A DNA stretch of 64,000 bases from Sphagnum compactum. Taxonomy: Eukaryota. Position numbers and translations under genes: made by a program. The notes below the pieces were generated by a model. It was given only the letters and a program-made list of their open reading frames with translations. It did no database searches and was not told the origin of the DNA. This document shows, piece after piece, positions 4,759-41,000 of this stretch. How positions within the stretch are numbered: the first letter of the stretch is position 1; every line of letters starts with the position of its first letter. The DNA lies in NCBI GenBank assembly GCA_965153455.1, contig OZ234494.1:10292001-10356000 (forward strand). Direction: 5' to 3'.

Positions 4759-7700
4759 GTTCCGCTGTTGGTCCCAGTCCCAGTTTCACTCAGTATGTGG
4801 ACATCATCCGTATTCCAGAAGACATACCACAAGAGACAGCTTTGGTGGACTCCGGCGCCACCTCTTCTTTCATTGACCAAACATTTATCGTCCAACACAA
4901 CATCCCTGTGGTCAAGAAGTCAACCCCTGTTCCGGTAGAGGTTATTGATGGGAGAACCATTGCTTCTGGTGCAATCACACACGAGACAACCCCTCTAGAA
5001 CTCTGTATCGGCAAGCACACGGAGAAGATTGTTCTCAACATCATCTCCACCCTTCACCATCCCATCATCCTTGGTCTGCCTTGGCTAGAAGCACACAACC
5101 CTATCATTGATTGGCGATCTAGAACCCTCACCTTCAGCGCACAACGGTGCACCTCTCAAGAACCCCACGCTCAGAAAAACACTTTGTCCAGTCTTGCCAA
5201 GAACCCTGTGGTCGAGAACCCAAAGAGGGTCGGAACCAATTCCAGTTTTATCAAGTCTGTTATGTCAAATCCTGCAGTCAAGAACCCCCGGTTGGTCAGA
5301 ACTAAACCTTGTCCTGTCAAGAATCTTGTCAAGAATCCTGCCCAGAAAACCAACCCTATCCAGATCTTCGTTGATAGAGCTGTCCCTTTCTATCGGGCTG
5401 CTAAGAATCTTCAAGTCTTCGCCATCCATGTCAACCCAGCCAACACCACAAACCCCCAATCAGAACCAACACCTGTCAAACTTCCCGAGAAGTACAAGGA
5501 CTTTGTTGATGTTTTTGAAAAGATTAATGCTGATCAGCTCCTCGCCCATAGTCCATATTACTGCCCGATTGATCTAAAAGAAGGACACTCACCACCCTTT
5601 GGTCCTATCTATGGCCTATCGGAACCGGAACTCCAAGCCCTGCGTGATTACCTTACTAAAAATCTTGCCAAGGGGTTCATTCAGCATTCCAAGTCTCCAG
5701 CCGGCGCCCCAATTTTGTTTGTCAAGAAGAAGGATGGCTCCCTTCGACTCCGTGTGGATTATCGTGGACTCAACAAGATAACCAAAAAGAATCGATATCC
5801 CTTGCCCTTGATTTCAGGTCTCCTAGATCGACTATGTACCGAGAAGATCTTCACCAAGCTTGACCTCCGTGGAGCCTACAACTTACTCAGGATTCGCCCC
5901 GGTGATGAATGGAAGACAGCTTTCCGCACATGCTACGGCCACTTCGAATACACGGTCATGCCCTTCGGCCTCACCAATGCACCTGCAGTCTTTCAGCATC
6001 TGATGAATGATATCTTCCGGGATTACATGGACGAATTTGTCGTGGTCTATTTGGATGACATTTTAATCTTTTCCAAGGACCAGGAAACCCACGACAAACA
6101 TGTACGATTGGTGCTTGCGACGCTCCGGGAGCATGGCTTATACGCCAAGTTGGAAAAATGTGAATTCGACAAATCTTTAGTGGTGTTCCTCGGCTATGTG
6201 ATCTCTCCAGATGGCATTTTCATGGACAAGTCAAAGGTCGAGATCATCCAGTGTTGGGCTACTCCATCCTCGGTCAAGGACGTTCAACGCTTCCTAGGGT
6301 TTGCCAACTTCTATCGTCGGTTTATCAAAGGCTACTCCAAGATCACAACACCGTTAATAACCCTGACTTGCAAAGACAAGCCCTTCTCGTGGAATCCAAC
6401 GGCCCAGGCTGCTTTTGATACTCTCAAGATGGCATTCACCTCTGCACCTATCCTGATACATCCCGATCCTGCCAAGCCATTCATTGTGGAAACGGACGCT
6501 TCAGATTTTGCCTTGGGAGCTATTCTATCTCAATTTGGAATAGATGGGTTGTTGCATCCAGTTGCTTTCTATTCACGGAAGTTAACCAGTGCCGAAATCA
6601 ACTACCAGGTCTACGATAAGGAACTCCTGGCAATCATCACGGCATTCGAGCAGTGGAGACCGTATCTTGCCGGAGCTCAACATTGAGTCCAAGTTCTGAC
6701 AGATCACAAGAATCTCTTTTATTTCACAACTACTCGGACCTTAAATCGTCGCCAGGCACGCTGGTCTATCTTCCTAGCTGATTTCGACTTTGAGATTCAG
6801 TATCAACCCGGCACCCAGCAAGGGAAAGCTGACGTGCTATCTCGTCGTTCAGAATATGAACTTCGAGCAAGGGATGAGGCCTACGGCCAGCAGAACGAAA
6901 CTTTACTCAACCCCGAGCAATTTCGAGTTGCAGCAACAATCAGCACCCTCCCAGACTCATACCTTGTCAGGGACATCAAGATGGCAACTAAGGAAGACAC
7001 CTGGGCTACCAACATCAAGAAGGAACTCTAGGAACGACCAAGGAACTCAAATCGTGATGACTTGGATCAGTTTGAGCAGCAAGACGGACTTCTCCTTCGA
7101 AATAACCTGATTTATGTACCCGAAGGACCTATACGCCTAAAAATCCTGAGAGAATGCCACGACAACACCCTGGCGGGTCACTTTGGAATGGCACGGACTC
7201 ACGAACTAGTGTCAAGGACTTACTGGTGGCCCAAAATGAACAAGATGCTACGGGAGTATGTCAAGTCTTGTGATACATGTGCTCGATCCAAGGCTCCCAG
7301 GCATCGCCCGTTTGGACTCCTACAGCCTCTGTCGATTCCTAGCCGACCTTGGGGATCTATTGCAATGGACTTCATCACAGACCTCCTTACTGTCAGAACC
7401 AAGAATTCAATACTGGTTGTGGTCGATCGACTCACCAAAATGGCCCATTTCACCCCTTGTTCCAAGTCAATCACGGCAGAAGAGACAACTTAGTTAATTC
7501 TGGACGGGATCGTCCGACTGCATGGACTCCCCAAGGAAATTGTGTCCGACAGAGGTCCTCAGTTTGCATCCAAGTTCTGGCATCGTCTATTCGAGCTTCT
7601 TGGAATTGACATTCGGCTATCCTCAGCTTTCCACCCTGAGACAGATGGACAAACCGAACGGACAAACCAGACACTCGAGCAATACCTCCGCTGCACTGTG

Positions 7701-8428
7701 AACTACTAACAGGACGACTAGCTGGACCTACTATCTCAAGCAAAGTTTGCTTATAATAACACAACACATGCATCGAGCGGGATCAGTCCATTCTTTGCCA
7801 ATTACGGTTTTCATCCCAGGTTCAGCCTTGAAATTCCTGGAGACTCCGTAAACCCCTCGGCTGAAGAAAGGGCCACGAGGCTTGGACAGGTTCAACAGAA
7901 CCTTATGGCAGAACTCAAGCTAACACAGGAGTGGCAAAAGAAGCAAGCAGACCGTCGACGCAAGGACCATCCAAACTTCAAGGTTGGAGACAAGGTCTGG
8001 CTTCTCAGAAAGAACATTGCTACCACTCGCCCATGTGCCAAGTTGGATTACAAGCGCCTCGGACCTTTCAAAATCGCCAAATTGGTTGGTCTAGTGGCTT
8101 GCCAGTTGGAGCTTCCACCCCAGTTCAAAATCCACAATGTTTTCCATGTCTCCCTGCTTGAGCGCTATCATGAAAACCCGATCCCAGAACGTCATCAAGA
8201 ACCCCTAGCTCCAGTCGAAATTGAAGGCCAAGAAATGTTTGAAGTTCAGGAGGTCTTGGACTCCAAGAAGATTCGTGGAAAGCTCCTGTACCTTGTCTTT
8301 TGGCGAGGTTATCTTCCTTCTGAAGCTACTTGGGAGCCTGCTGGAAACCTAGTTCATGCCCAAGACTTAGTTAATCGGTTTCACCAACGATATCCTAGCA
8401 AACCGGCTCCATCTGGAAGATGTCGCTT

Positions 8429-8745: not shown

Positions 8746-11339
8746 ATAGGTGCCAAGAATTGGATTATGAAATATACTTAAAATATTTTCAATTTTAATA
8801 GAATATTCTTTTAATATTTATTTCATAGCATACAAACAAAAACCCCTTTATTTCATGTACTTCATAAAATATAGTAAGGTAACCTCCCCAAGAATGAGTT
8901 GGAATGGTTCTGCATACACCATAGGTGATAAGTTACATAACATGTTTGAAACTCGTCAATTAACATCATAGTGGTGTAGATGATAGTTGGCATGGACATA
9001 CAATAATATGGAGGTTGAAAATGACTTACCACATTGGCACTATAATTAATGAATGCCATCATTTGGATTGATTTAAAGGTTGACATTATAGCCATATAAA
9101 AAAAATTGATGTTCATGAGGTTTATTCCACAACAATTGTATATGGACCACAAATCCTGAAAAGGCCAATCTATCAACATGATTTAATTTTAACCTTATAT
9201 GTCAAAATGGGGCAAAACCTTGAAAAACGATTTTTAAATTCACACAATTTGTTGTGTTTAAGAAAATGGGATGGGAGATATGGTTGAATGCAATTGAAGA
9301 ACATGTCTAATGAGTAGGGAAATTGCACATGTGATGCTTGTGAGAACTTATGTTCAAGTGTATTAATGACATAATATTACAAAATTTAACACAATATTTG
9401 AGTTTCATTGAGAAAGAAGAAGAAAGAATCTTCATAACTCCAAAATTTGAAATATATTCTTAGGAATAACAACTTGTTATTAAGTTAATTACCTTGTTTG
9501 ATTTGAGATAAAGAATGCATTTTACAAAGTTTAATGTATAAAGAATTTTTTAAATTTATTCAATTTGTTTTATTACATTATATTTAATGTGTATTCCTTG
9601 AAGAGTTTGAATTGTACTCACATTAGTTATTTAGCATTATTAATAAGGCCAACAAACATTAAAATGCAATTCATGTTTGGTTTGTTGTTGTTGAGTTCAT
9701 GAAAGTTAACATAAGAAGATTTGCACATAAAAACAAAATCATGTTTGGGTGCACCAAGGTGGTTTCATAATATTTAGACCTACATTTTGTACAAGAAAAC
9801 CATGTTCTCATGTTCATTAGGTGAATTTGATGAAAAAATAAATCACATGAAAATTTTAAAGTCATGAAATTTTGAAAGAAAAGGCTACACAATAAACAAT
9901 TCTTTCGTTAAATTGTTTGGCTATTTTTCAATTCATTAGGTTCAAAAAATTTAACTTTAGATGCAGGTTAGATGTGTAGGAAATAATCATGCCAAAAAAC
10001 ATTTATAGTTGATTTTAGAACTCATTTTGGCATATTTCACGTTTTTGCTTATAAACCAAAATATTCATGCATAATTATTACACATGTGAAAAATCACCAC
10101 CATTGCATGAATGATCTTATCTTAGACCATTCAAATTTTCTTATTTAGATTTGTTTCATGCTAATATTATTTGTAGAAAATAGCCCTAAGAAAGTCCTTG
10201 AATTTTTTTTCCTTTCTTTTGGCACCCCAATTGTGAATGCACCCTTGTGTCATTGGAAATTCAACTAAATTACAAAACCTAGTCTTGGCAAGAGAAATTA
10301 GGTGCGTAACAAGTTTAAGCTTGGGCCAAAGGCATAGGCCACATTATAGCAATTAAGTTGATGTTCCTCACTACTTTGCATATATTTTTTCATGTGTTTT
10401 TGGGATGGGTGCACATAAAGAACAAGCCTTGACTTGAAACCTACACCCTCGCATCTTTTTGTGGATGTCCATGTGATTGAAAAAAAATACATGAATTCAA
10501 ATCTCCATGCCCAATATCTTGAAATTTCATAAGGGGGCAACCATATAGTTCCAATACTTGTGTGTACTACAACAATTGGACCACATGCATTGCAACAATT
10601 ACAACTAACTTGTCTAGGCACTACAATTAGGTCCTAAACCCTTCACCATTGGTTGCCAATTTTCTCAATTGTAATGTCATGTTTCTTGTGTGGCATGTTG
10701 TTTGCCACTTTCGTTGATTAACATTTACTAACTTCTACATGAATGAACCATGATCTTGGATTTTGATTATCTCCTTTTGTGATAAAATTTGTCCTTCAAT
10801 GAAGCAAAGATGTAGTTCTAAAAGAGAAAGCAAGTTGACAATCATAATTTTGCATGAAGTTATTTTGATTGAAGAATTACTTAATCATGCAATAAAATTG
10901 ATTATGAATGTCTTCTTCAAAGAACAATTATTATCATCTATGTAATGGGCCCCCTACATAGGTAAATTGTTAAATTAATTAGTGGAAAATTTATGACCAC
11001 TTTGTTGGATTAGTATTAACAACAAAGGGGGCACCTACTATTACTATGCAACTTTAGTATTTAGTAAGAACTTTTATTTGATTTGCATGGTTTATAACAT
11101 TTTGTGTTTTAGATTCTATAATTTATTACATTTGGAATTAAAATAGGTTTAAAGGGTCTTGCAAAAACTTTTGGCATGAATAAAACTTTTTGCTAGGTTT
11201 TATTTTATTTGCACTAACACAATCAAAAGAAAAAATGACAAAGAACACCAAATTGGGAAGATGCAGTCAAACTATGTATTAGGTATATTCGTAAAGTCAA
11301 CAAAATACAACACCAATACCTTGAATACCAGTACCTATC

Positions 11340-12570
11340 TAAGTTTAACCAATAGGTGTAGCCATTAGATTTAGCCATTAGATTTAGCGATTATGTTTAG
11401 CCATTAGATTTAACCACTAGGTTTACCCAAAATTTCATCAAATTTTAACAATTAAGTTTAATTTAAATTTAGCCATTAAGTTTAACCATTATGTTTAGCC
11501 ACTACATTTGGCATTAAGTTTAGCTAAGTTGAACCATTAGATTTTGTCAATATTATAACCTAAATTTAACCACTAGATATAGCCATTAAGTATAACCTAA
11601 ATCTAACCATTATGTTAAACCATTAGATTTACCCATTAAGTTTAACCTAACCTTAACTAATGTTATGTTTAACCATTAGGTTTAATTTATATTAGCCATT
11701 ATGTTTAACCACTATATTTAGCCATTAAGTTTAACCTATGTTATATGTAAGTTAAATCTAGTGATTAAATCTAATGGCTAAATATCAACTATCTTTAGCC
11801 ATTATATTTAGGCACACTGTTTACCCAAAGTTTAACCACATGAAGTTTATCCATTAAGTTTATCAACTAAGTTTATGTTTAACCCAGGTTTAATCATTAT
11901 GTTTAGCCACTAGATTTAGCCACTAGGTTTACTCAAAGTTGAACTATGAAGTTTAAACATTAAATTTATTTGGTAGGTCTATGTTTAGCCAAGGTTTAGT
12001 CATTATGTTTAACCATTATGTTTATCAATTAGGTTTAGCCACTATATATGTTTAGCCACTAGATTTAACCACTAAATTTAACCAAAGTTTAACCATTAGG
12101 TTTATTAACTAAGTTTATGTTTAACAAAGGCTTAATCATTATGTTTAGCCAATAAATTTCACCACTAGGTTTAGCCAAAGTTTAGCCATGAAGTTTAGTC
12201 ATTATGTTTATTAACTAGGTTTAGCCACTATGTTTAGTCAAAATTTAGTCATTATGTTTAACCACTAGATTTAGCCATTCGGTTTAGCCAAAGTTGAGTT
12301 ATGAAGTTTAACCATTAGGTTTGTCAACTAGGCTTAGCTAGAACATGTTTAGCCAAGGCTTAATCATTATGTTTAACCACTAAATTTAATCATTAAGTTT
12401 ATCCAAAGTTTAGCCATGAAATTTAAACATTATGTAAATATAAATTAAGTTTAACCAAGGTTTAAACATTAAGTTTAATCACTACATTAAACCACTAAGT
12501 TTAACCATTTGATTTAACCATTATATTTAATTATTAGTTATCACTTAGGTTTAACCATTGTGTTTAGTGA
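11340..12570. repeat. Degenerate short-unit tandem array (tttagccattag / tttaaccactag variants, ~12-13 bp)
   Basis: Dozens of variants of tttagcca(t/c)tag and gtttaaccattag are visible. Confidence 0.85.
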
Positions 12571-12620
12571 TGTGAAATAAAATTTGAAATAAAAAAACTT
12601 AACAAAAGTTGAACATCTTT

Positions 12621-12690
12621 AATGGTGTAGTCCATTGGTAAGGACTCGGTTTATCATTGTGAAGGTTTGGGGTTCAATTCCTAATACTTG
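12621..12690 (+). pseudogene. Degenerate tRNA-like or SINE-head sequence
   Basis: A-box-like TGGTGTAGTCCATTGGTA and B-box GGTTCAATTCC (12671-12681) at tRNA spacing; stems are poorly paired. Confidence 0.45.
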
Positions 12691-12899
12691 TAACCTATAT
12701 ACATGCTTAAAGGGTTAGGGTAGATAGGTTAAGTTAAGAAGGTTAGATAAACTAAATAAGGTTAGGTATGTTGAGTAGGTTAAACTAAGCTACCACCTAC
12801 CTATTTGTTTTTTTATGACCTACCTAAAACCTATATACAACCTACCTACCTAAACCTACTTGCACAAAAAAATATTTTTAGTAATAATCTAAAACAAAT

Positions 12900-13121
12900 T
12901 GGGTAGAAAATTTGACCAGTCAAATGGTCCACTATCCAGTAGTCAAAATGATTAATCAAATAGTCCAATAATTTGCTAATAAAAAAAACCACCCCTGGTC
13001 ATGTAGGACATGGCCAAAACAACTTGTCCAGATTGACGGGATGGTTTTTTTTAACATTTGTCCAAATTCAGTCCTTTCTGACTAGATTTTTTAATCAAAA
13101 TAACTTGTTTTTGTAGTAGTG
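12900..13121. mobile_element. Possible CACTA (En/Spm) element terminus
   Basis: The end reads CACTACTACAAAAACAAG on the minus strand, with short subterminal gtcaaa/tgac repeats; no partner end found. Confidence 0.35.
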
Positions 13122-16100
13122 ATTTCATTAATGAACTAATTTAAATTCTACTATATGACAAAACTAAAATATTGGGTGAAGACAATAGAATATAAGGCTC
13201 TATTCATCAAACTCAAATTCAACAAAACCAAGGGAATTTTTAAAAAAAAGGTAGAACCAAATTTAGGTAAGTTGCAACTTTCACAACAATTCAAACTAGT
13301 GGATGGGTGAAAGCAAACTTAATGACCTTATATGGATGTCACCCTAAGAGGGAAATCACTTTCATTTTATTCCAAACAACATGCAAAAAAATCTATGAGA
13401 TGCAACTTATTGAAATAAAATATAACTTATAATTTAGCTAAATGTAAATAAGATGCCTATAATTCATCCTAAGAATATATTAAAATATACCTAAAATATA
13501 CAAGGAATGATCTTCCCAAAAACATAACATTGGCAAGCTTTCATATATCTTTTATACTTTTAATAAAATAATTATCTTTTCATTGAAATATCAAAAACAA
13601 GATTCACTTATGTAAAACTAAAAGCATTAAAATTTTTATGCAAAAATCAAATCAAAATTGTGGATGCACAATAAACAAAAGGGACTTTTGAATTTTGACA
13701 ACAATTTTGGTCACATCTACAAAACTCATGAATATGAATTTGTATTTTATGATGTATTAGTGCCATGTATTTGAAACTCCGGGTTATTGTATGAGTGATG
13801 TTTAAGAACTAAAAATGCATTGAATGGGCAGAATGGTTAAATTTATTACATTGTGAACTTTTCAAAGTCTGAAAAATTACAATTATTTTTAAAAACAATT
13901 TACTTGCATAAAAATGATTTTTTCTTGAACAATTTGTTGAATTTTTAAAAAAAATTCTTATAACATCATGAATTGAAATTGAAAAATAATTAATATTAAT
14001 ACTATTTGAACATTGATATTTTAAACCAATCTTCAACTAGATTAGATATGCTCTTAAATTGGACTTTGATTCACCAAGAATGAAACAACATCAAACAATT
14101 GAAAAAAATGTGCACATCACATATATTCATGTTACATGAATATGGTTTTGGTCAAGTTCAATTAATAGGACTATTTTTAATTTTCAACCTACTTGTTAAT
14201 AGACAACATTCTTTAGCTAATATTTGAATCACCTATTGTGTGAGAATCAAAATGTGAGGAATGATTGGCATATGATTCCAATTGTAATTTAAAACTTCAT
14301 CACCTTGTTCAACATGTAGCATAATCAATAATAAAATTATTGGCTGGTGAACCTTTGTTTCTCCTCTTAGAAGGATACCAACTGCTTACCTATGCCCATT
14401 TACCTATGAGACATGAATACAACGAAACAATTTTTTTGTCAACACACATTATTCATGATACATGGTGCGATGGTGGGTGTTGGTTCATTCCAATATTGGG
14501 TAAGTAAATCTATTATCCTATATATTCATGGACATATAATAAGATAAAAAAATACCTTACATGATTAGTAAAAACAATTTGGTTATCTTTTTTTTATCCT
14601 ATTTGATTCAGAAATGTTTCAAACTTACCTTCTCTTTATTTTATTTGGGTAGTTAGTATATATTTGAGGTTTACTTTTATTTGATGGAAGGTAATTGTTT
14701 TCAACATGGTAAATCAAAGGTATATGTCAAGACCATTGTATAGCACATATGAATTTTTATTTTCGTAATGCATTGGTTATGATGGATTTTTTGAATTATA
14801 ATGATGACTAATCATTGAATATATTTGATTTTTATTCATTACATTGATTATTTTTGAAAAAGTCTTACCATACATGCTCTTGGAACTATTTTAGGTTTTA
14901 TACCATTGGTCATTATAAGAATGGTTTGAATACATTTTTGACATTATTGATTGATTTTGTTATTTGTTAAATTTTTCATAGGAAGTTGAAAATTTCACAA
15001 TGCCAATTGCACAAGTAATTATCTTTCTTCACTATGAAATGTGCTATACTTGTGTAAATAACTTTTAATGTTATGTGTACCCACTTATACTTGCATGGTA
15101 TGTATAGGTCAAATGATGAAATATTTATTCTTACCTTATTTTACATATGGGGTGAATGTTCATCATTCACCTTTACCTAAATTGATAATTTTGTGAAACC
15201 TTTATACCATTACTTAGCTTGGAATCTTTTATGAGGCCTATACACATTTCCCAAGTGATATATTTCTTGGCTAGAGTGTCAAACCAGCCCCCATGACTGC
15301 ATGAGTTGGCCATTCTGTCCATAGAATGGGTTGTATTTTTCATTTGCCTCTTTACCCTATGTTGACCAACATTCTATTATAATCAATTTTTTTTGGCTAA
15401 TTTTTCCCAACCCTAACCTCCATACTACCCTCCCACCTAACTGCCCTATTAACCTACATCTTAGCCCTACTTACGAACTAACAACTAATCCCTGACTTAC
15501 CATTTATCTTTTTGGCAAAACATATATTTATTTCAGGCTAAATTCTTGTCTTCTCTTGGTTAAACTTTATATATTTCAAAATCTTCAGTCTATTTATTTT
15601 CTTTTAATTATCACAAAACTCAAAACTATCATTGTACTTTTTCTAAATCATTAACGATGGATATTTTATGTGCAACATTTGGGTATTGCTTGAAACATAA
15701 GAAATCCAGCCATGATTTTATGCTTCAAATGCAAGTGTTGCATATTTTATTTTACTTTTTCTTCTTAAAGTATTTCTCATCAAAATGGCAAAACTATTGC
15801 ATACATTAGACCAATCATGATGTGATGAAATTTGAATGACAATGGACCAAGTTTCTATAATACCTTCATGTTGAGATGGGGCACCTCTTACATAATTGAA
15901 ATGCAAATAACCTAAGTCCTTGCAATTTCCATTTCATTTTTGTTACCAATTATATTTTGGTCATAGAAAGGTTGGAAGATGCAAATATTGCAAATACTTT
16001 CTCATCGACCATCTAAATTATGGCAACTAGAAAATTTGGGAAATTACAATACCCACATTGTCAATATCTAATATAAATGCCCAAATCTAGGTCAACACAA

Positions 16101-17341
16101 TTCTTACACAGTCAATTGCATCAACCTTAGATTATGTAAACATTTGAACTTATGGAACTTTAACCTTCATCTAGAAACTAAATAATTTTGTACAAATGAC
16201 CAAAAAACCTTTATCCTAATTTGTAATTTTGTTTGCATAAACCATAAATTATGTAGACAGTATAACCTAATGGATGCATAAGCTTAAATTTGAAAATTTA
16301 AATAAACTTATGCAAATGAACCCTAAAATGTTGAGTTAAAACCTTTTTATGCAACAAAAAATCCGTACATTGACCTTCAATTAAATAAACACAAAAAGAA
16401 TTGGTTGCATAACTTTAATATTAAAATTTATCAAACTTTTTACAACTAAGTGTTAAACTTAATTTTAGAATTATTTTTGCATAACCCTAAATTGTATACA
16501 AATTACAAAGATTGGATACATAATTGTAATAAAAATATGAAACAATTTTATATAAGTACCAATAAAACTTGTGTTTTAAACCTAATTTGGGGGGGAGGAA
16601 CCCCAACCCTTAATAAAATGTAAACCACACAAGTGGAAAGGTTTATATCATTCATACCTCTACAATAGAATCACTTTCATTCTCCTTTCCTTTAGTAGAT
16701 GAAAGAGAAAAGAAAAATAGGAACCTCCTTATATATGTGTGTATCTGAATACATAAGTTCACTTTAAAAATATTCCATGAAAATAATCTAAATGCTAATA
16801 AAAATGTTACCTTAAACCCACTGTCCCCCTATTTATTTGAAATATATATTAAGCAAAAGTTTAGATGGGGTGAAATCATGATAAAGTATACACAAAAAGT
16901 AGTGTAAGCAACAAAATATTGGGGTCCCTATATAAAAGGACTAACAAGTAGATGATTTTATAAAGATAATATTATTATTTTGGGGTACATTATTTTTAAA
17001 CTTTTATTTGCATGAATTTCAAAAGTTAAATTGTTAGAATCCCCATTACCTTTGTTGCCAATGTAGTGAAGTCATAATGACCATATGGGCATGCTAACAG
17101 GCTAAGCTTTTGGCTCTTTAAAAGCATGTGAATTCTCATTAGATTCTCACACAGATTGTAGAAATGCAATAGGAGCTGCATTTGATGGCATCAAGTTGAA
17201 GTTAGGTGTCAAGGAGTCTGGGAAAACATGAAGGAAGACAAAATCACCATGTAATTCAAGCTTCTAGAGTGTTGCAGAATATTTCTTTCTTGACATCATG
17301 AGTCAAAAGAACCAAGTACATGATCACTACCAGTAAGATTG

Positions 17342-29700: not shown

Positions 29701-30920
29701 CAACACCTCCTATGTTAGAAAGTCGTCAATGTCAAAATTAGATAAACCTTCATGTTCCATTCCCATATTGACAATGCTACTACTGCTAACATAACTTGCA
29801 AAGCACCTAGAAACACATAGCATGTTAAAAAGATTAACACTAATGCTAGTAGGAGCTGAAGAACCCATGGCAAAAAACTTAAGAAAAGGAAAGGTGAGAT
29901 TGATAAATTGCCAAGAGCGATCAAAAGAACTCTAGCAAATGAAATAGCACTAGGAGAAGATGACATGATGACCTATAGTAGACAACAAAAACCTTTTTAA
30001 CTCATCACTTTTGGAATCCAAAAAACAAAAAAACATAAATTGCAAGTTATAGTAGAAGACATGAAACATGAAATAAAAGACATTGAGCATAGATAACAAA
30101 AAGTAGAGGTTGAATGAGGGGGAAAAAAAAAAGTACGTCACCTTTGTCCATATCCATGCAAACCATCTTGAATAAATGTGTCAAAGTGTAAACAAAAGTG
30201 GTAATGTCTTCTTGCCATTTTGAGGTCAAATTCAAGGAGGAAGATTGTGACAAGCTTTCTCCATTGTCGTGATGGAAATTTGAACTCAACAATTGCAAAT
30301 TACAAACCCTAATCCTCACAACAAAAACACAAGGTTTTCTAATTCCACTATGGGTTTCAATTAGAAAATCAAAGGTATTTAATTCCACTAATGTCGGGTT
30401 ACAAACAAAGAACCTCAGGTATTTGAATCAGAAATGCGTCAGGTTTTTGGCAAAAAACCTTGTCAACTTTTTGGACTTAGGTCAAAAGCAAAGTTGGGGG
30501 TTAAAAATCTAAATGCCAAGTTGAAAGTGGACGCAAGTTTTTTTTTCGACAATTGTCAAGTCAAAGGTGAAGTCGAGGTTTCACGAACTTAAAACCAGAG
30601 GTTATATACCCATTTATTTAATCTAAAAACTAACAAAGAACCAAGTGTGTTTTAAAAACCGCGCAACATTGGAAAAGACCAAGTATTGGTATAAATTATT
30701 GGTTCAAACTTGACACAAAGTGTGAATGACTTTTGAAGTATTATGTGTGGATCTAATGGATGGGCATGTTCCATAAAAGTGCATGCATTTACATGAGGAA
30801 TTTTTCAATTGATGACGAAATTTTTTAATATGAAGTTTGAACATACCCATCAAGGGCAAAGTCATTATTCAATAAATTGTTTGTTCTTCATGTAATTTCA
30901 TCCCATATGTTTTGTTAAAT

Positions 30921-31235
30921 TGTCATGCCTGTATGCATGGCCTCATACATGATAGCCGGTTACGGGCATGCCAATCATGTTTTTAGGGTTAATGTACGTT
31001 CTTAGGTTATTGTGTGCTATTAGGTGTTTTAGGGTTATGACTTGTTTAAGGTTTCAACTTTGTTGATGGTTGTATAAAAGGTCAAGCTCATCCTTTCTCT
31101 TGTCAGTTTTTCTACAATTCCTTTGTTAGGGAGAGTTTCCTCCATAGTCAGACTGGATTTTTAGATGTTCACGGCGACTATTACATGGCCATCATTTACA
31201 TACACTACGTTTTCTTTCCTTCTTTTTGATTCAAT
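30921..31235 (+). repeat. Repeat A1 (contains TATA at 31073)
   Basis: Aligns with 37526-37858 throughout, with an ~18-bp indel. Confidence 0.95.
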
Positions 31236-31237
31236 TC

Positions 31238-31248
31238 TAGAAAAATTG
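31238..31248 (+). promoter_or_regulatory. Putative self-priming PBS of the split-repeat element
   Basis: TAGAAAAATTG pairs with CAGTTTTTCTA (31104-31114, 31 nt after the TATA start) with one G:U pair. Confidence 0.6.
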
Positions 31249-32174
31249 CTCTCTATTGCTTAATGTTGAAAATGACAAATTATTCCTAGCTTTGAATTTC
31301 TTGGGTTTCTTTTGCTTATTGGTTTCTAGTGTTCTTGAGTTGTTACTACTTCTTCTTCTTTTTCTACTCTTGTACTGCAGCTACAATAGGTTCTTTGACT
31401 CCCCAAAATTAGAGGCTTTCTTCTCCCAGTATAAGCTACAAGTTGTGAAGTTCTGAGTTCCGAAACTTCGGAAGGGGGAAGGAGTGAGCAACTCCAAAGC
31501 TTGTTTTATTGCTAGCTTTAGGTCTTGGGAGCACGTACACACACACACACATAAGGTTTGATTGCAGTACAAGATCTGCACCACTCATGCAACCCCACAT
31601 ACACTTGCTTTCCTTGTATATGGGTTTTGAGGTTAGCATCTAGGCTGTGCACTCTTGTGTGTTTTTGAGCTTGCAGTCATGTAACGAGTTGCCCTTGTAG
31701 CAGCTCTGGAAGAAGAAGAAGAAAATTTTTAAAAACAACACAAAGTAGAAGAAAAAAATTTCTCTCTTTTCTTCTGCACACCATCGTTACAGAGCTTGTG
31801 GACGCAAATCGCTCTGTAGCATCATCGCCATCCATCGTTGTCGCCATTCATCATAGTTTCGTTCGACATTTGTCACAGTTCTGTTCGACATTCATCACAG
31901 TTTCATTCGATGCCCATCACCTTTTGTTCGACGTCCGTCAATGTCCGTCCGTTCGATTTCGTCCCCATGGTTCCGTCCGTCTGGCCCCTTTCGTCCATCG
32001 ACATCCGTCCACAGACGTGTGTCCATCAATGTCCGTCCGTCACTGTTCATCCCCGTCGACATGTTGTATTCTTCAAATCATATGTACTGCGTACATACGT
32101 ATCCGATACCATATTTTTCAAACCGTATCTAGTGCCCTGTATTCCTACAAAATTTTAGGGCATGGGACAACAAC

Positions 32175-33905
32175 ATGTCCTCTGATGATGAGAACACTAT
32201 TGCTCAGCCAGAGCCAAGGTATCAACTACGAAGCAACACACAATCATTTGAGCCGATTTTTTTGAACTCACAATCTTCACAATCGTACCATCAAGCGTTT
32301 ACAGCGCCACCGTCATCCAGTACACCTCCTACCAGGAACTCAGGTTTAGGTAACACTACATCAATGGTACATCATAATCCATTTGGAAGGGTTAATTAGT
32401 GGGGTACGCCTACTACCGCACCAGCTTTCACACCATCATCATATATTTCGTTGTAAGCCGTTACCTCTACACCCATATACACCATGGAGGTCGATAGTTC
32501 CTTTGGGAGAATTGAGAAGTTCAGTGGAAGGCCAGGTACTATTTCTTTGAGGGAATTCAAGGCAACTTTTTCAATTGTGGTTTATGAATTGGAGTTCAAG
32601 TATGGCGCTAATTACACTAAGGCGTTCGCATTCAAATAATCGGCCCATTATGTGCATTATGAGGCATTGGATGTCTACAAGCAACATTCTCTCAGGATTT
32701 TGGGCGTCACCCAGATCCCCAATCTAACTTATGCCACAGCCATTGCCACCGCCTCTCAAGCTGCATTACAAGCTACCATTGCACATCATGGGATTATGCC
32801 CAATAATCTAGATCCGGTACCTACTTCAATAAATCTTTCTCCTCAACAATTCATTGTTGCTATCGCAAACATTCCTCCCATCATCGATGCACCAGCTTTT
32901 GTTGATCCAGCGGGGGAATTCTTTTGAAATCTTGAGCTGGAATTTCCGGTTAAGAGTTCTGAAAAAATTCTTTACCTTGCCACCTTCTCTCAACAAAATG
33001 ATGAAACCTTCAAGATGCTCTATAGGAGGCTTCTCAAGCTTAAAGAGGATACTTAGAGCATCACTAACCTAGAAGCTGCATATTAGTATCTTCGTTCATT
33101 GGAAGGTATTTCGACACTCTATGCGCAGGTTTTGCAACGGGTTTTTTGTAGAATTTGGAGACTCGTACACTTTGCTAGATGTGTACAACAATTCTGACAA
33201 GCTGGAACTGGCTCATGCACATTATGAGGCCAGTACTATGAGGCCTCCATCACGTTCAAGGCCTCAGCCTCCACCAGCTACGCCAACCAGATCATCACAT
33301 TCTTTTTCAAGGGTTAAAGCAGTGCACTCAGCTACACCCTACCTTCTTGCAACTACTGTGGCAATCTTGCCCACAAAGCTAGTGAGTGCAACATTCTTTC
33401 CGAGGATCTCTTTTGTGATTATTGTGGAAAAGAGGGACATCAGGAAGTTGTTTGTTTTGCCAAGTTCCTAGAACAAAAGTAACTCTGATTACCACGGCAA
33501 AATTTGCCAACATCTTTCGTTGCCCCTCAACCAAAAGCCAAGGCACCTCAGCCTTCCACTCAGGTTTTCCCCACCAAGGGTAGTTCTAGTAAGAATGCTA
33601 AGAAGAAGGAGCACAATGCTGACAAGAGGGAGGTGCTTCAAGCCCATGCTGCTCAAGTTCAAACTCTACAAAATGAACTCGAATCATTGAGGGCCCAACT
33701 TGCTAATCTAAAAGGCAAGTCTTCCCAACCAGCTAGTCATGCCCAACCTGTACAAGGTTCAGGATCAAGGGAAGGACCTCCTAGGTCGTTCTTTGGCCTC
33801 TCACATGATGCCGTGGCTGGGGAGTATGTTTTTTCCAATATGCACAATGGACCAAGCCTGGTGTATCGTCATGCTTCAGCCACTTGGGACGAACCCAGCC
33901 CATAA
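32175..33905 (+). pseudogene. gag: gag-like ORF with two CCHC zinc knuckles, disrupted
   Basis: EKFSG motif near 32515; CNYCGNLAHKASEC and CDYCGKEGHQEVVC at ~33345-33460; stops and frameshifts. Confidence 0.75.
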
Positions 33906-34339
33906 GAAAGAGATAAGGCTATGGGGTTCCAAACTGGCACTACTAATTAGACCAAGGTGACTAGATTGGAATGTAACGCTCTATTGGGGAGAGGCATGGA
34001 CCTGAACTCCCTTACATGGTTGTTGGTAACCTGTGTACTTTTTCAAATGTACACAACACCAGTACTGATTCAATCAGCTTGCAGTTCTCGCGATGCAACT
34101 ACATGGGCACCCCGACCATTTACACTTTCTATCTTCAACACTCTACACTTCACTCTTAGTGTTGGGGGGGAGGAGGTACCATGTTGTTTTTGATACACCT
34201 AGAGGTACATCAGCTTTTGGAGAAACAATTACAACCTTCTATGAATTTGTGCAGTTGGATAATGGAGAACCCAATACACCAAGTTTTTCAAACACATTTT
34301 CCAACTCCATTCCATGTGTTTCCAACTACCCTTTCATTA

Positions 34340-37302
34340 TGGGGAACCAGCTCACCAAGAAGGAGAAAGACCAGGTCACAAACTTGCTAATTAAGTATGA
34401 GAATATGTTCGCATTCTCAATGAAAGACTTAGGTAGGTGTAAGACCATGCAATTCTCTATAGACCTTACAGATGAGACACCCATCTATCGAAGGAGGTGT
34501 AGGTTGAGCAAGCATGAGTGGGAACACGTAGATGAAAAATACAAAGAGCTCCATGAGGCTGGTCTCATTCAGCCATCAAAATCTGATTTCGCAGCCATTA
34601 CAATAATGCCAACAAAGAAGGATTCAACTGGATTATGGATTGAGAAAAGGATGTGCGGGGATTATAGGCCTTTGAACTTGGTTACACCTTAGGATAAGTA
34701 CCCCATGCCCATCCCTGAAGAACTGTTTGATAGCATTGGAAACTCAAACATCTTCACAATTGTGGATTTGAGGCAAGGCTTCAACTAGATTGTGCTCGCT
34801 GCGAAGGATTACAAGAAAACGACATTCCATGGAAGCAATAAGTTGTGGGAATGGCTTATGATGCCTTTTGGATTGAAGAATGCACATGTCTTCTTTCAGC
34901 AAGTCATGGACCAAATTCTTGAAGGGGTAAATTTCCTAAAGTGCTACATAGATGACGTCCTAGTGCATAGCAAGGGACTCCTACAGGACTTGGCTCATCT
35001 TGAGGAATTATTCAAGAGGCTCCACGAAGTCAATATGAAGATCCATCCTAAAAAGTGTGAGTTTGTTGTCACCTCAGTAGTCTACCTTGGACACAAAATT
35101 TTGCCAAATGGTATTATGGCTCATTGGGCCAAAGTAGCCATTTTGGAGATGCCCAATCCTACTGATGTTCACACTTTGAGGAGCTTCATCGGACTATGTA
35201 ATTACTACAGGATTTATGTCCAAGACTTCAGTACTATTGCTCATCCTTTCTATGCATTGTCAAAGAAGGATGTTGCTTGGACATGGAATGAAGAGGCTCA
35301 GGAAGCTTTCAACACACTCAAGGAAAAGCTTTCAGAGTTCCCCATTCTAAAAAGACCTGATTTCAACAAGGTCTTCATTCTACACACTAACTGGAGTGCT
35401 CTTGGTATTGGTGTTATTCTTGGCCAACTTGATGAGAAAGGCAAAGAATATGTTATCGCCTATGCATCCCGAAGCAATAACAAGGCTGAGAGCAACTACT
35501 CTTCATACGAAGGGGAATGTCTTGCTGTTGTATGGGCCATCATACATTTCGGGCCCTATTTTTATGGCACCAAGTTCACTTTGTATACCGACCACTAGCC
35601 TATCAAGTGGTTGATGACCAACGACAAGCTTATTGGTAAGTTAGCTCGTTGGCGTTTATATTTCAGGATTATGAGTTCAAGGTTATTCATCAACCTGGTA
35701 TTACACATCAGAACGCGGATACCATGTCGCAGAGACCCCTCACTACCTCTGAAGATTTCTTAGAAGCCAGGCAAGACTTCGACCACATTCGAGCAATACA
35801 TGTATCTTATGCATCTAGTTATCTTGCACTACTGCAATGTAACCTGGTTGAACATCCCTTTGTGGATATATGGGAAGACTTGGACACTCTAAGGTTTTTT
35901 CAACGTGGGGAATATCCTCCCCAAGTTACGTCAAATCATCGGGATCACATATAACAACGATCCAAACGCTACTCATGGAGGGACAATCACCTCATCCAAT
36001 GCTTACCACAAGGTGACAGAGTGGTTTCTTCACCACATGAACGGCTTGGTCTTATTCAGAAGGTACACTCGGAGCTTGGAGTTAGGTGTACTTATAGCCT
36101 TCTCGCTCCTCATTATCATTGGAAAGGTATGTATGCTCAAGTTCGAGACGTCATTGCTAGGTGTGCACAATGTGATAGAGTGATAATTTCCTTTTCCTCT
36201 CGACAGCTCATGCTTTCTCCACTCCCTATTCAAGGCATGTTCTATCCCTGGTCATGTGATTTAGCTAGAAAGTTACCACAGACCTCCAGGGGTAATGTCT
36301 ACATCATGATTATGATTTAGCATTTTTCAAAGTGGGTTGAGCTTGTTGCGCTGCCGGACAAGTCATCACACAACACTAGCCATGCTTTCTTACAACAGGT
36401 GCTAAGTAGGTTTGGGGCTTGTGCTGAGTGCCTTACTAATCAAGGATCAGAATTTAGAGAAGAATTCCAAGACGTACTTAATCATGCTCTCATTGACCAT
36501 CGCCAAACTTCAAGGGATCATCCCAAGCTGATGGCCTTGCAGAGAGGATGGTTCAGACATGTAAAAAGGGACTTCGAAGGATTTGCCTCATTGGGAACAA
36601 AGAGGATTGGGACGTGGCCCTACCTTACATCGCCATGGGTACAGGATGTCCAAACACGCCTCTTTGTCTCATTTTGCTCCTTACTTTCTACATTTTGGGA
36701 GACATCCCATTCCACCTTCTTCCATTACTGCTCAAATGGACCAAGTTATGGACTTGGACTCCCCAGTCGCTTGGGTTAGGGTCATCGCAGAGAGGGTTGC
36801 TCTATTCAGGAAGGTTATGTTCATGGCCATGGAAAACTTGTCCATTGCACTGCATCGAGACACCTTACGATATGCACACACACAAGGTGGCAGTTATAAA
36901 CCTAAGGTGAGACAATTTGATGTTGGTGGCTTTGTGTATCTTTAGCAGCAACCTAATGATACTCTAGACACTTCTTTCGGTCGCACTATTTTGAGGATTA
37001 AAGCGATCAGGCCTTCAGGTGTGTTAGAGTTGCAAGGAGCTAATGGACGCACAATTCGGGATCACTCCAAAAACTATGCGCCTTGCCACCTCCCGAACTT
37101 GGATCCTACCATCATCACGTCAACTTGGACTCCTCCATTCAACTATCCATGTCAGGTATGTCAAAGGACAAACAATGCTGATCAGATGCTATTTTGTGAT
37201 AATTGTAATGGTGGATACCATCTATTCTGCCTCAAGCCGGAGCTCATTCAAGTTCCCACCGGCATTTGGTACTGTTCATCATGTTTTCTTGCAGCACCTT
37301 GA
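34340..37302 (+). pseudogene. pol: pol: RT, RNase H, DDE integrase and C-terminal PHD finger, disrupted
   Basis: RMCGDYRPLN, MPFGLKNA and YIDD; LHTNWS and EGECLAVVWA; VHSELG..CAQC; WSCDLA, LTNQG and ERMVQT; PHD CQVC..MLFCDNC..YHLFC..WYCSSC. Confidence 0.92.
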
Positions 37303-37342
37303 TTTTTACTCAAACCATGCCACGCTTTTCCCAGCTTAGGTC

Positions 37343-37350
37343 AGGGGGGA
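37343..37350 (+). promoter_or_regulatory. Polypurine tract directly upstream of repeat B1
   Basis: AGGGGGGA abuts ATACATGAG at 37351. Confidence 0.7.
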
Positions 37351-37523
37351 ATACATGAGAATTTCATTTCAGCCTCCTCTTGTGCATTGTATACATGTGT
37401 GTGCATCTTTTTTTGGTTGATTAGTTTCTACCTTTGACTGGTTTTAATCTTTTTGTTCAGTAAAATTTACTATGGATTTACACCCTTACGACACCGTACA
37501 TCACGACACTACACGTCACGATA
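37351..37523 (+). repeat. Repeat B1
   Basis: Aligns with 37859-38032. Confidence 0.95.
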
Positions 37524-37525
37524 GC

Positions 37526-37858
37526 TGTCATGCCCATATGCATGGCCTCATACATGACGGCTGGTTATGGGCATGCCAATTATGCCTTTAGGGTTAATGT
37601 ACGCTCTTAAGGTTGATGTACTTCTTAGGTTAATGTGTGTTACTAGGTGTTTTAGGGTTATGGCTTGTTTAAGGTTTTAGCTTTATTGATGGTTGTATAA
37701 AAGGCTAAGGTCATCCCTTCTCTTGTTAGTTTTTCTATAATTCCTTTGTCAGGGAGAGTTTCCTCCATAGTTAGACTGGATTACTAGATGCTCACAACGG
37801 CTATTACACGGCCATCATTTACATACACTACGTTTTCTTTCCTTCTTTTCGATTCAAT
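37526..37858 (+). repeat. Repeat A2
   Basis: Aligns with 30921-31235; separated from B1 by the dinucleotide GC. Confidence 0.95.
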
Positions 37859-38032
37859 ATACATGAGAATTTCATTTCAACCTCCTCTTGTGCATTATAT
37901 ATATGTGCGTGCATCTCTTTTTGGTTGATTAGTTTATACCTTTGACTAGTTTTAGTTTTTTTGTTCAGTAGAATTTTATTATGGATTTACACCCTTACGA
38001 CACCGTATGTCACGACACTACACGTCATGACA
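37859..38032 (+). repeat. Repeat B2 (right terminus)
   Basis: Copy of B1 ending CATGACA, followed by the TSD AAAT. Confidence 0.95.
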
Positions 38033-41000
38033 AAATGTTTTTAATGTTATATTCACAATTCCTATTTTATTTTATTTTGTAAGATATGGTTTGTGGTTGG
38101 AACCTAATTTAATGTGAATGAGATTTAAATTATTTTGTGTGCTTAGGGTTTATCTTAAATGTGTGGTTTTGTAGTCTAAAAATTTCAAAACACATAGAAA
38201 GAATATGAGGTGTGGTTGACCTCAAGGTTTGTTGATTTTTTATGTTTTACTTTGAATTTGGATTCTTGTAACTACACGTCTACATTTTGTAATGCAAAAG
38301 ATGAATTTCATTTTTCAATGCTAGAACTAGATTAATTTGTGTTCAAACATTGGTATTTGTGTTTGAAACAAATGTGTTGCAACTAGGGGTGGGAGTTGAT
38401 GTAAAACAAATTATTGATCTATTGAAGAAGCTTCACATGTGAAAGTTTTGATTTTGGGGTGATTTTCCATGAATCAACATTTAAAATATTAAACTTCAAA
38501 TAGGGCCTAACATATATCAAAAGGCATATCACATGATCAAATGTCTTCAAGCACATAGGGATTGTGTACCATAGAAAAGTAGGGTTGTGAAGCAAGTACA
38601 CCATCAAATGACCACCATCACTATTTATTATGGAACTTGGGGGTGGTTGACAACAAATGAACATGGATCACCATCATCAATTGATGTAAAACTCAATTGC
38701 AAGGTGGTTCAATTGTTGCAGATTGAGGTTGAAAGGACATTGCATCCAACTTATGATTGTCATGGCATTAAAAGCTTGAATTACCATTGCCATGGCACAA
38801 GAACATGGAACCCTTGCTACAACTTGCCCATGGTTGTGAATTTTTTAAGGCAATGCACTTTTGTTCAAAACTTTTGAGTTCAAGCACAAGCTAAATTGCA
38901 ACTTGGGAACATCTCGAACTTCAAATCCTATATAATAAAATTGGGATTTGAATTTCATGAATATTGGGTAATTTTCAAGGGTTGGAAATGGTTACAATAT
39001 GGTGGTGGGATTGGTGTCAAGTCATGTGTGTAGAAACTTACAATGGCCATTGATGGTGCCCATCAATATCACACTAGTCCTTCAAGGTTTTTCCAAACTT
39101 CAAAGCACCAAGGGTTCACAAGGTTTAAATGTCACACTCTATATCACAAGCTTGATTTTTGTCTTATGATTTTCATCCACAAATTGTAGGCACGAACATC
39201 AATAAGTTGGATGATTGTTGGCAAATGTTCAAACAAATTTGACCTTATGCGTATATCAAGTAGCTAGTTGGTGAATGAAGGTTGGTAACCAACCATAGTT
39301 TGGAGCATATAAATTTGGTTTTATTACTAAATGTATCATGGACATTTCTAATATTGTGATATTTTCCTATTCAATGATACGATATGACATTTTTTTGTGT
39401 ACATCATAATTTGCATTCACCCTATCCAAATATTTAATAAGTATCATAAAGATACCACTAAAGAAAAAGATTTTAGCCCCAATATAAAAAAACAGCAAGA
39501 GGTTTAATTTTGAAATTTGGATTCAATTTGGAAATTCATTGTAGTCCTTCATATAAGGTTAAATTCACACCTTTTTTATGCCATTGGATTCTTGAAAAAA
39601 ATTGTGCATGTGGCAAAAATGAATAATGTTTAAACTATAATTTTTTGGAGGTTATTCACAAGCGCAAAAAATGGGTGGAGTTAGTGCACAACAATTTGTC
39701 AATTCAACAATCAAACATCCATGTGGGTAAACATTACTTACTATTCTCACATGTTAAAAGGAATGTTACTCCATCAATAGACATGGAAATTCACTCCATT
39801 AACTTTTTCTTTTTCTTTGATAGCTTGTTGTAATATGTCAAAAAATGAAGGGTAATAATATCCATGCTAGTTGTTTAATTATTATGTGATTCCCCCACTA
39901 TTGTTTGTTGAGTTATATGCATGTGCTTCCTATCATTATGTTGGTTGGGCTATTGTTTCTTTTTAGGAAGTAAAGGGATTTATTAAGTTGTGTCTCATTG
40001 ACCTACAACTTTGAATAAAAACATGTTATGGAGTTGATAACTTGGTAGTGTGTGATTATTGTGTAAGATGAGAGAAACCCAAGGTGAAAGGTTACAAACC
40101 TTCCCATTTGTGTTAATTGTCATAATGAACTTGAAGAATTATAATTGGACCTTGATGTGATTCATAATCAAACATGGGACAAGGCTAACAACCAATTCAA
40201 ACCATTATGTAGGTCCTACTTGTCATGGGCATGAAAACTACCACAACAATGAAATTTCCAAAATACACAAAACATGTCTAAATCTAAATTTAGCCATCAA
40301 ATATGATATTCAAAGATAAATACACAAGGTGTGCAACAAAAAGGTTAAAATGAAAATTTATTATGATAAAATAGGAAAACATGAACACGCATTAGAAGGA
40401 GATGATGCCTAATTCACCATATAATTTATTACGTTGTGTAGTGAATTAGGTAGACTTTTGTCACACTAGAAGCAACCTTTTGCCTATTAATCAATGACCA
40501 ATATGATCACTATGGACATGTTATAATCATTACACATGAATAGAATTTGGCTGTTTGAATTAAGGATAAGGTTTAAATTTATGGGGCATAATGTATGTGA
40601 ACTTGAAAATGGTACAACTCACCATCCTTAGAAGGATGTGTTCAAAGTTTTGAAAAAAACAACTTAGACCACAAGGTCATTAGAGATTTTTCAAAAAAAT
40701 TAACATTTTTGTGATTTCCTTTGGGGGAAGGGAGGATGATATTGATGACCCTAGATCCATTAGAGATCAAATTTCAAAAAACAAGTGGGCATTGTTTTGT
40801 CCTAAAAATGGAAGTTACATTTCAAGACATGAATGTGGGCCAAAAGGTTAAAGAATTTGAAATTTAACACTCTCTTGGGCCTATTTCCTTGGTCATGACT
40901 TAGCAAAAGACCTTTTCAATGGCATATCACACATTCCAATTGGAGCTTATTTGACCCTTTCATTAAACATTTTAGTGATGAAAAATTGAATTGCCAATTC

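Follow-up and report, generated by a model that had tools for sequence, protein, structure and literature searches.

KnitGypsy-Dnmt3 from Klebsormidium nitens is a Gypsy element with Dnmt3 that has been described as combining Gypsy domains with the repeats of a DIRS element (Fig. 4c legend; de Mendoza et al., 2018, PMC5890265), and streptophyte Gypsy-DNMT3 is mentioned in the accessible part of a 2026 preprint. In the DIRS elements themselves, as far as the accessible sections of two accounts go, the split direct repeats take the order A1–internal–B1–A2–B2 and are accompanied by a tyrosine recombinase and by no target duplication (PMC8969392, PMC7192593); TOC1 is cited in the accessible text of another as a nonautonomous DIRS element (PMC9940879). 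Here we describe a Ty3/gypsy element with this repeat order in a 64 000-nucleotide stretch of Sphagnum compactum DNA (contig OZ234494.1, positions 10,292,001 to 10,356,000 of the forward strand), the whole of which we refer to as the window. The segment at 30921–38032 is a decayed, internally deleted copy of a high-copy streptophyte family of the Gypsy-DNMT3/PHD type. As far as the accessible text of PMC5890265 describes it, the repeat layout has been in print since 2018 as a figure-legend remark, and the family in the window is a further member.

The terminal repeats of this family are arranged as A1–internal–B1–A2–B2 in every informative copy; in the window they run A1, internal region, B1, a 2-nt spacer, A2 and B2, all as direct repeats. 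From the aligned copies it is well supported that the priming signals define a permuted repeat and that the copying ends and the insertion ends are uncoupled. Textbook retrotransposons with long terminal repeats (LTRs), in comparison, insert the ends that are produced by reverse transcription. The reading that we favour, with a probability of about 0.55, is that of a permuted Gypsy family in which the transcript would prime itself, the ends of the complementary DNA (cDNA) would be joined and the DDE integrase would open an internal palindrome. A first-pass annotation of the window had already proposed the permuted repeat, with a self-complementary primer site after A1 and a polypurine tract before B1, and had linked it to a circular intermediate. 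What it observed is confirmed, and its interpretation is partly supported by the family comparison.

Relatives were collected by scanning metagenome contigs with the reverse transcriptase/RNase H frame. The best 80 of the 573 loci, with 81–90% amino-acid identity, all belong to one family. Ten loci with identical flanks were set aside as the same insertion (L012, L015, L027, L032, L055, L019, L021, L035, L065 and L080), and the layout counts refer to the 51 unique loci with repeat hits; 20 loci have no match to A or B. Downstream of the internal region, 18 unique loci (the window included) have B-A-B and 17 have B alone with at least 400 nt of other sequence beyond it, while one has B-A with a 29-nt remnant of B2, two have a rearranged A alone (L067 and L069) and two are cut by the contig end. 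Upstream, A stands alone in all 19 copies with at least 600 nt of room, as it does in one more with less room, and neither a B preceding the upstream A nor an upstream A-B-A was found among the unique loci examined (0/19). Because 18 independent insertions share one order, the order is a property of the family and not a local accident. The loci without an A or B match are mostly short contigs; the long ones examined have no flanking repeat pair and no G-run at the expected start of B1, except for one unrelated run in L048. Their treatment as a second subfamily was rejected, and they are taken as truncated or rearranged copies. Full-length relatives are 9–11 kb long, with broken frames in all those examined. 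The repeat pairs within copies are 82–94% alike (A1/A2 84–91%; in the window, A1/A2 85% and B1/B2 91%, the latter over 37351–37521 and 37859–38030), so that the insertions are old.

The insertion ends are well defined by the copies. A always starts with TGTCATG, and B ends in ...ACGACA or, once its CpG has decayed, in CATGACA. In ten of the 13 unique copies with both ends, the 4 bp preceding A recur immediately after the last B, compared with agreement in 2/156 mismatched left/right pairs; a duplication of 5 bp was found in none of the 13. The ten comprise the window copy (AAAT), L014, L026, L033, L034, L044, L046, L053, L058 and a solo A-B in the flank of L047, which is counted only in this test, and three of them (L026, L044 and L058) are A...B copies. 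L013 and L028 agree in three of the four bases and L023 does not match. Inside every B-A unit both insertion ends adjoin each other across the 2-nt spacer, forming the palindrome ACA-GC-TGT. The spacer is mostly GC, and its variants GT, AC and AT differ from GC by one or two transitions. Since the insertion ends, with TG...CA and the 4-bp duplication, are the start of A and the end of B, and the cDNA-type ends lie elsewhere (175 and approximately 300 bp apart from them), replication and integration appear to use different ends, as the first-pass annotation had held.

The copying ends are predicted from two signals, of which the first is a primer site. The sequence TCTAGAAAAACT lies directly 3′ of A in most copies. 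A carries the box TATAAAAGG, followed 32 nt later by AGTTTTTCTAGAATT; the family 12-mer AGTTTTTCTAGA, 32 nt past the first T of the TATA box, complements TCTAGAAAAACT exactly, and the match extends to 15 nt when the last three bases of A are included. The 12-nt duplex is perfect in six of the 19 unique copies with an A1 and has at least 11 of its 12 pairs, G:U counted, in 13 of them. In L046 an A:U pair replaces the G:C pair of the others, with both sides changed. RNA that begins with the 12-mer and ends with the primer site folds into a panhandle of −40.4 kcal/mol (z −4.0; none of 200 shuffles was as good), and a consensus fold of 15 copies pairs columns 1–15 with columns 129–143, which is the same helix.

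In the window copy, TATAAAA starts at 31073, where the first-pass annotation had placed it, and the complementarity of 11 nt with one G:U that it had noted is present between CAGTTTTTCTA at 31104–31114 and TAGAAAAATTG at 31238–31248, 2 nt past the end of A1 at 31235. Aligned on the family form, the duplex between 31105–31116 and 31236–31247 has ten Watson–Crick pairs, one G:U and one mismatch; an 11-mer with a 2-nt gap was seen because the window has a G>C change at 31115 in the 12-mer and a C>T change at 31246 in the site. No TGG-type site for a transfer RNA (tRNA) primer lies after A1. In the 45 nt after A in the aligned family copies, TGG occurs only in L040, as a variant of the common motif, and no tRNA gene was found in the 64-kb window. 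In L014, approximately 17 additional nt lengthen A1 as far as the primer site, and they recur at the A2/B2 joint of that copy.

Three further observations concern the A repeat and its surroundings. One subfamily (L014 and L026 after A1, and L047) has a tandem extension of approximately 17 nt at the end of A, before the primer site. A second TTTCTAGAT-like motif lies in the A consensus approximately 50 nt past the 12-mer (window approximately 31155–31167), and 8 nt of it could pair with the primer site. A search of B and A for a poly(A) signal gave nothing conserved enough to use.

The second signal is the G-rich polypurine tract. In 36 of 38 unique copies, all but L029 and L056, at least five G residues occur in the 12 nt before B1, and a purine run of at least six precedes A2 in none of 19. 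In the window, AGGGGGGAA at 37343 is the sole purine run of at least eight in 36900–37530; it adjoins B1, which starts at 37351, and not A2, in agreement with the first-pass annotation. Both the complementarity and the G-run are conserved family-wide and are located precisely where A ends and B starts, so that the limits of the repeats coincide with the priming signals. With the primer site after A and the G-run before B, reverse transcription should therefore yield LTRs of the order B-A and a linear cDNA B-A-internal-B-A. In most rows the A2/B2 joint is exact, the base before the primer site standing next to the base after the G-run, and the variants are small (such as one additional T in L009 and some additional bases in L066). 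The fusion reported for the window is likewise exact: A2, with its last base at 37858, runs straight into B2, whose first base is 37859. Read in this way, the two predicted cDNA ends meet base to base at the A2/B2 joint.

These features can be combined into a mechanism in which the transcript would begin at the 12-mer, fold back on the primer site and be cut to prime itself, as in Tf1. Reverse transcription would give the linear cDNA described above. Its outer ends, the B start and the A end, which are without TG/CA, would then be joined in a two-LTR circle, by an equivalent end joining or by an end-to-end template switch. One internal palindrome would be cut by the DDE integrase on both strands, each time after CA, and the opened molecule would insert to give A-internal-B-A-B. 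Copies of the form A-internal-B would derive from recombination between B1 and B2 or from one-LTR circles. A circle intermediate is plausible, but a circle is only one of the routes by which the cDNA ends could be joined. The broader proposal, that a streptophyte DDE-integrase lineage joins its cDNA ends first and then opens an internal TG/CA palindrome, with a site of the circle-junction type as its normal attachment site, is put forward tentatively and at less than even odds.

Several observations weigh against this reading. A two-LTR circle with two identical palindromes predicts A-B-A-internal-B as often as A-internal-B-A-B, and the former order is found in 0/19 copies, which tells against the circle model of the first-pass annotation; the asymmetry could stem from a linear route or from an end-to-end template switch confined to the right end. 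Covariation of the 12-mer with the primer site, which that annotation had suggested looking for, amounts to the one compensatory pair in L046 and no more. In the window alone, an 11-nt pairing with G:U allowed arises in 817/20000 dinucleotide shuffles of A1 (4%) and, when offsets of 0–5 after A1 are allowed, in 450/5000 shuffles (9%). By this measure the window pairing is unremarkable, because A1 is T-rich; it is more than chance because the 12-nt match is conserved in the family and starts right at the A end. Conservation over the 12-mer is 0.945, compared with a top value of 0.974 among the windows in A, most columns having values of 0.8–0.99, and in so uniform a family the profile of A failed to set the 12-mer apart. 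Part of the duplex, TCTAGA, is palindromic by itself, and the remainder sets a T-run against an A-run. In one RNA run (X21, with the same species label, of which approximately 12% was read) there are no reads on A or on the coding part; it gave 103 reads, of which 92 lie only partly on the stretch, and all are less than 95% alike and are placed almost only on the low-complexity segment 31201–31734. Finally, all of the sampled copies are decayed (A1/A2 84–91%, frames broken), which leaves the activity of the family putative.

The alternative that survives best retains the same priming signals and uncoupled ends and dispenses with the closed circle. The integrase would act on the linear cDNA, cutting the palindrome inside its left repeat; in one variant the plus strand would run off the right end and switch end-to-end onto the left end, adding B, and the A/B joint could also be formed at or after insertion by host end joining or a template switch. 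Such a route could explain why A-B-A-internal-B is found in 0/19 copies, as the two cDNA ends and strands are not equivalent, and a joint that is mostly exact, with the small variants of L009 and L066, fits the end joining of finished cDNA ends. Sequence alone does not separate this route from that through a circle. Cutting hundreds of bases inside a cDNA end is an unusual activity for retroviral-type integrases, and we have counted this against a route without a circle, which we consider unlikely, if far from negligible.

It is also rather doubtful that the site after A serves a host RNA primer (part of a tRNA or another RNA), with the internal complement arising as a by-product of the T-run and the palindrome TCTAGA. 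The window match that lies within chance, a 12-mer no more conserved than its surroundings and an X21 run that places no reads on A are all in keeping with this explanation, but it has to be set against the absence of TGG after A in the aligned copies (the L040 variant aside), a complement located 32 nt past a conserved TATA box, a repeat boundary that stays exactly at the start of the duplex even where A is extended, a pair that has changed on both sides and a panhandle fold that is far better than its shuffles.

The repeat order is identical to that of the split direct repeats in the accessible parts of PMC8969392 and PMC7192593, which raises the question of a PAT/Ngaro-type element of DIRS order, for which a circle would be restored on the internal B1-A2 template and inserted by a tyrosine recombinase. 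Membership of this group is refuted and has a very low probability. No tyrosine recombinase was found in 67 frame pieces of at least 70 amino acids from both strands of L013 and L026 (at E 0.001 or better), nor in the window pieces; the reverse transcriptase, RNase H and DDE integrase are of the Ty3/gypsy type; and TG...CA ends with a 4-bp duplication are present in ten of 13 copies, whereas DIRS elements are described without duplications in the accessible part of PMC8969392. That an ordinary LTR element was rearranged once or misassembled in the window, as the single, old and deleted copy there might have suggested, is refuted by 18 independent insertions that share the order, differ in their flanks and have duplications of their own; the probability of such an accident or artefact is negligible.

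The favoured reading, a self-primed permuted Gypsy element, can be placed among the known systems as follows. The family has the pol order of Ty3/gypsy elements (Metaviridae), protease, reverse transcriptase, RNase H and DDE integrase, and their TG...CA ends with a short target duplication (10/13 copies). It differs from them in that two complete LTRs are not found at the ends, the 5′ side having A only (19/19) and the 3′ side B-A-B or B, and in that the B-A unit enclosed by the primer site and the polypurine tract ends elsewhere than the inserted DNA does. Retroviral two-LTR circles are regarded as a dead end, and in retroviruses the copying and insertion ends coincide. The B-A units resemble retroviral two-LTR junctions and the circle junctions of IS3/IS30-type insertion sequences in having two ends abutted as a palindrome with a short spacer (ACA-GC-TGT), and the A2/B2 joint resembles a retroviral U5/U3-type joint in being made from finished cDNA ends. 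Unlike in retroviral circles, the integrase-type palindrome lies inside the repeat and the joint of cDNA ends is fixed in every full copy.

Tf1 primes itself with the first 11 nt of its transcript. The family is similar to Tf1/sushi-type elements in having no TGG primer site and in the complementarity of the predicted 5′ end of the transcript to the site right after the repeat; it differs in the 12-nt length of the stretch, in a PHD finger instead of a chromodomain and in its permuted repeats, and self-priming is here predicted from sequence. The self-priming of elements without a TGG site has been described in the accessible part of PMC5006619. A TOC1-like repeat layout considered for Dictyostelium DGLT-A was not borne out in the accessible parts of PMC5006619 and PMC6101501 and was dropped.

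With the DIRS elements that have split direct repeats (PAT-like, Ngaro and TOC1), the family shares the order A1-internal-B1-A2-B2, with one orientation dominant, and an internal B-A junction at which both element ends stand side by side. It differs from them in having a DDE integrase, TG...CA ends and a 4-bp duplication, so that two of the three DIRS features, as given in the accessible accounts, are absent. The likeness to KnitGypsy-Dnmt3, in the accessible description of the latter, extends to a Gypsy-type polyprotein, to a C5 DNA methyltransferase inside pol (in the full copies L013, L033 and L044) and to a DIRS-like repeat layout with Gypsy domains; the window copy differs in having lost the DNMT part. 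The accessible sections of PMC5890265 give no primer site, polypurine tract, insertion ends, target duplication or mechanism, and a literature search found no paper, in the parts accessible, with a self-complementary primer site, a polypurine tract before B, TG...CA ends with a 4-bp duplication, or a mechanism; the supplements of PMC5890265 may bear on both points.

If the integrase does use the internal palindrome of abutted ends, the family would offer a direct and testable case of a retroviral-type integrase that integrates joined or circular cDNA, and hence a working instance of a pathway that, for retroviruses, was discarded long ago. The reading, if true, would also connect the DIRS-type repeat layout to Ty3/gypsy elements and suggest a route by which the split direct repeats of PAT, Ngaro and TOC1 type could have arisen from LTR elements.

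The pol order in the window is RVT_1, RT_RNaseH_2, Integrase_H2C2 and rve, and full copies encode a protease, a C5 DNA methyltransferase (PF00145), reverse transcriptase, RNase H, integrase and a PHD finger; the C-terminal module is a PHD finger and not a chromodomain. The span of approximately 3.07 kb that is missing from the window copy is where the protease and DNMT parts of the full-length relatives map. The proteins closest to the family are unnamed, with 83–89% identity, and one of them (P0001, with an 89% identical reverse transcriptase) lists PF00145. Among named proteins, one from the liverwort Calypogeia fissa comes closest (78%), followed by Klebsormidium and Closterium proteins at 40–53%, which points to a bryophyte-grade plant as the probable host; the K. 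nitens reverse transcriptase relatives are 44–53% identical and some have a PHD finger. The features of the window copy, with the methyltransferase segments of three relatives, are collected in Table 1.

Table 1. Positions of the repeats, signals and coding pieces of the element in the window, and of PF00145 in full-length relatives.
Feature	Position	Strand	Remarks
Left 4-bp target-site duplication AAAT	30917..30920	+	Identical 4 bp after B2
Repeat A1	30921..31235	+	Begins TGTCATGCC (insertion end); holds promoter-like and transcribed R/U5-like parts
TATAAAA box inside A1	31073..31079	+	Kept in nearly all rows of the 46-copy A alignment
AGTTTTTCTACA, window form of the family 12-mer AGTTTTTCTAGA	31105..31116	+	Proposed 5′ end of the transcript and self-primer
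TCTAGAAAAATT, predicted primer-binding site directly 3′ of A1	31236..31247	+	Family form TCTAGAAAAACT
Internal region	31236..37350	+	Reading frames broken
Simple-repeat stretch	31671..32246	+	No counterpart in L046, the closest full-length relative
Break point of internal deletion	33847..33848	+	Approximately 3.07 kb missing relative to L046
Reverse transcriptase and RNase H frame pieces	34069..35598	+	RVT_1, RT_RNaseH_2, RT_RNaseH
DDE integrase pieces	35955..36779	+	Zinc-binding H2C2 domain, rve core
C-terminal piece with PHD finger	36946..37302	+	PF00628, E 1.5e-12
Polypurine tract AGGGGGGA	37343..37350	+	Adjoins B1
Repeat B1	37351..37523	+	Begins ATACATGAG (predicted cDNA left end); ends ...CACGATA, family form ...CACGACA (insertion-end sequence)
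2-nt spacer GC between B end and A start	37524..37525	+	Centre of palindrome ACA-GC-TGT
Repeat A2	37526..37858	+	18-bp insertion relative to A1
A2/B2 joint	37858..37859	+	Last base before primer site fused to first base after polypurine tract
Repeat B2	37859..38032	+	Terminates CATGACA (insertion end)
Right 4-bp target-site duplication AAAT	38033..38036	+	
PF00145 between protease and reverse transcriptase in full-length relatives	L013 8439-9092; L033 8098-8658; L044 5355-6221		

A scan of viral contigs gave 64 loci, of which the three closest (L081–L083) are 41–46% identical to the family. Envelope-type genes are present in these three, in which no split repeats and no PHD finger were found. 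The remaining loci are 26–36% identical and, by size alone, we took them to be mostly pararetrovirus-like. L083 (1–9150) combines a Gypsy-type pol with a Monjiviricetes fusion glycoprotein and has an identical overlap of 99 nt at both ends, and L081 and L082 combine a Gypsy-type pol with a Baculovirus F protein; all three are unrelated to the permuted-repeat family.

Within the window, a second and unrelated pol region of Ty3/gypsy type lies at 5589–8090 (+), with 29–37% identity to proteins of the permuted-repeat family. The simple-repeat stretch of the element consists of (CA)n and degenerate repeats of the CGTCC type, and RNA reads touch its neighbourhood only partly and with low likeness. 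In the DNA runs X1 and X3 the summed contig depth over the element, within 30400–38400, is a few hundred times that of the flanks (approximately 10000–17000 compared with 41 in X1). This excess indicates that the family is highly repeated in the organism of those runs, although the depth is not a copy number. Over the same interval, the differences between the window copy and other copies are mostly A>G and T>C when read from the window; the window copy has therefore gained C>T and G>A transitions, as expected of a methylated, decaying repeat.

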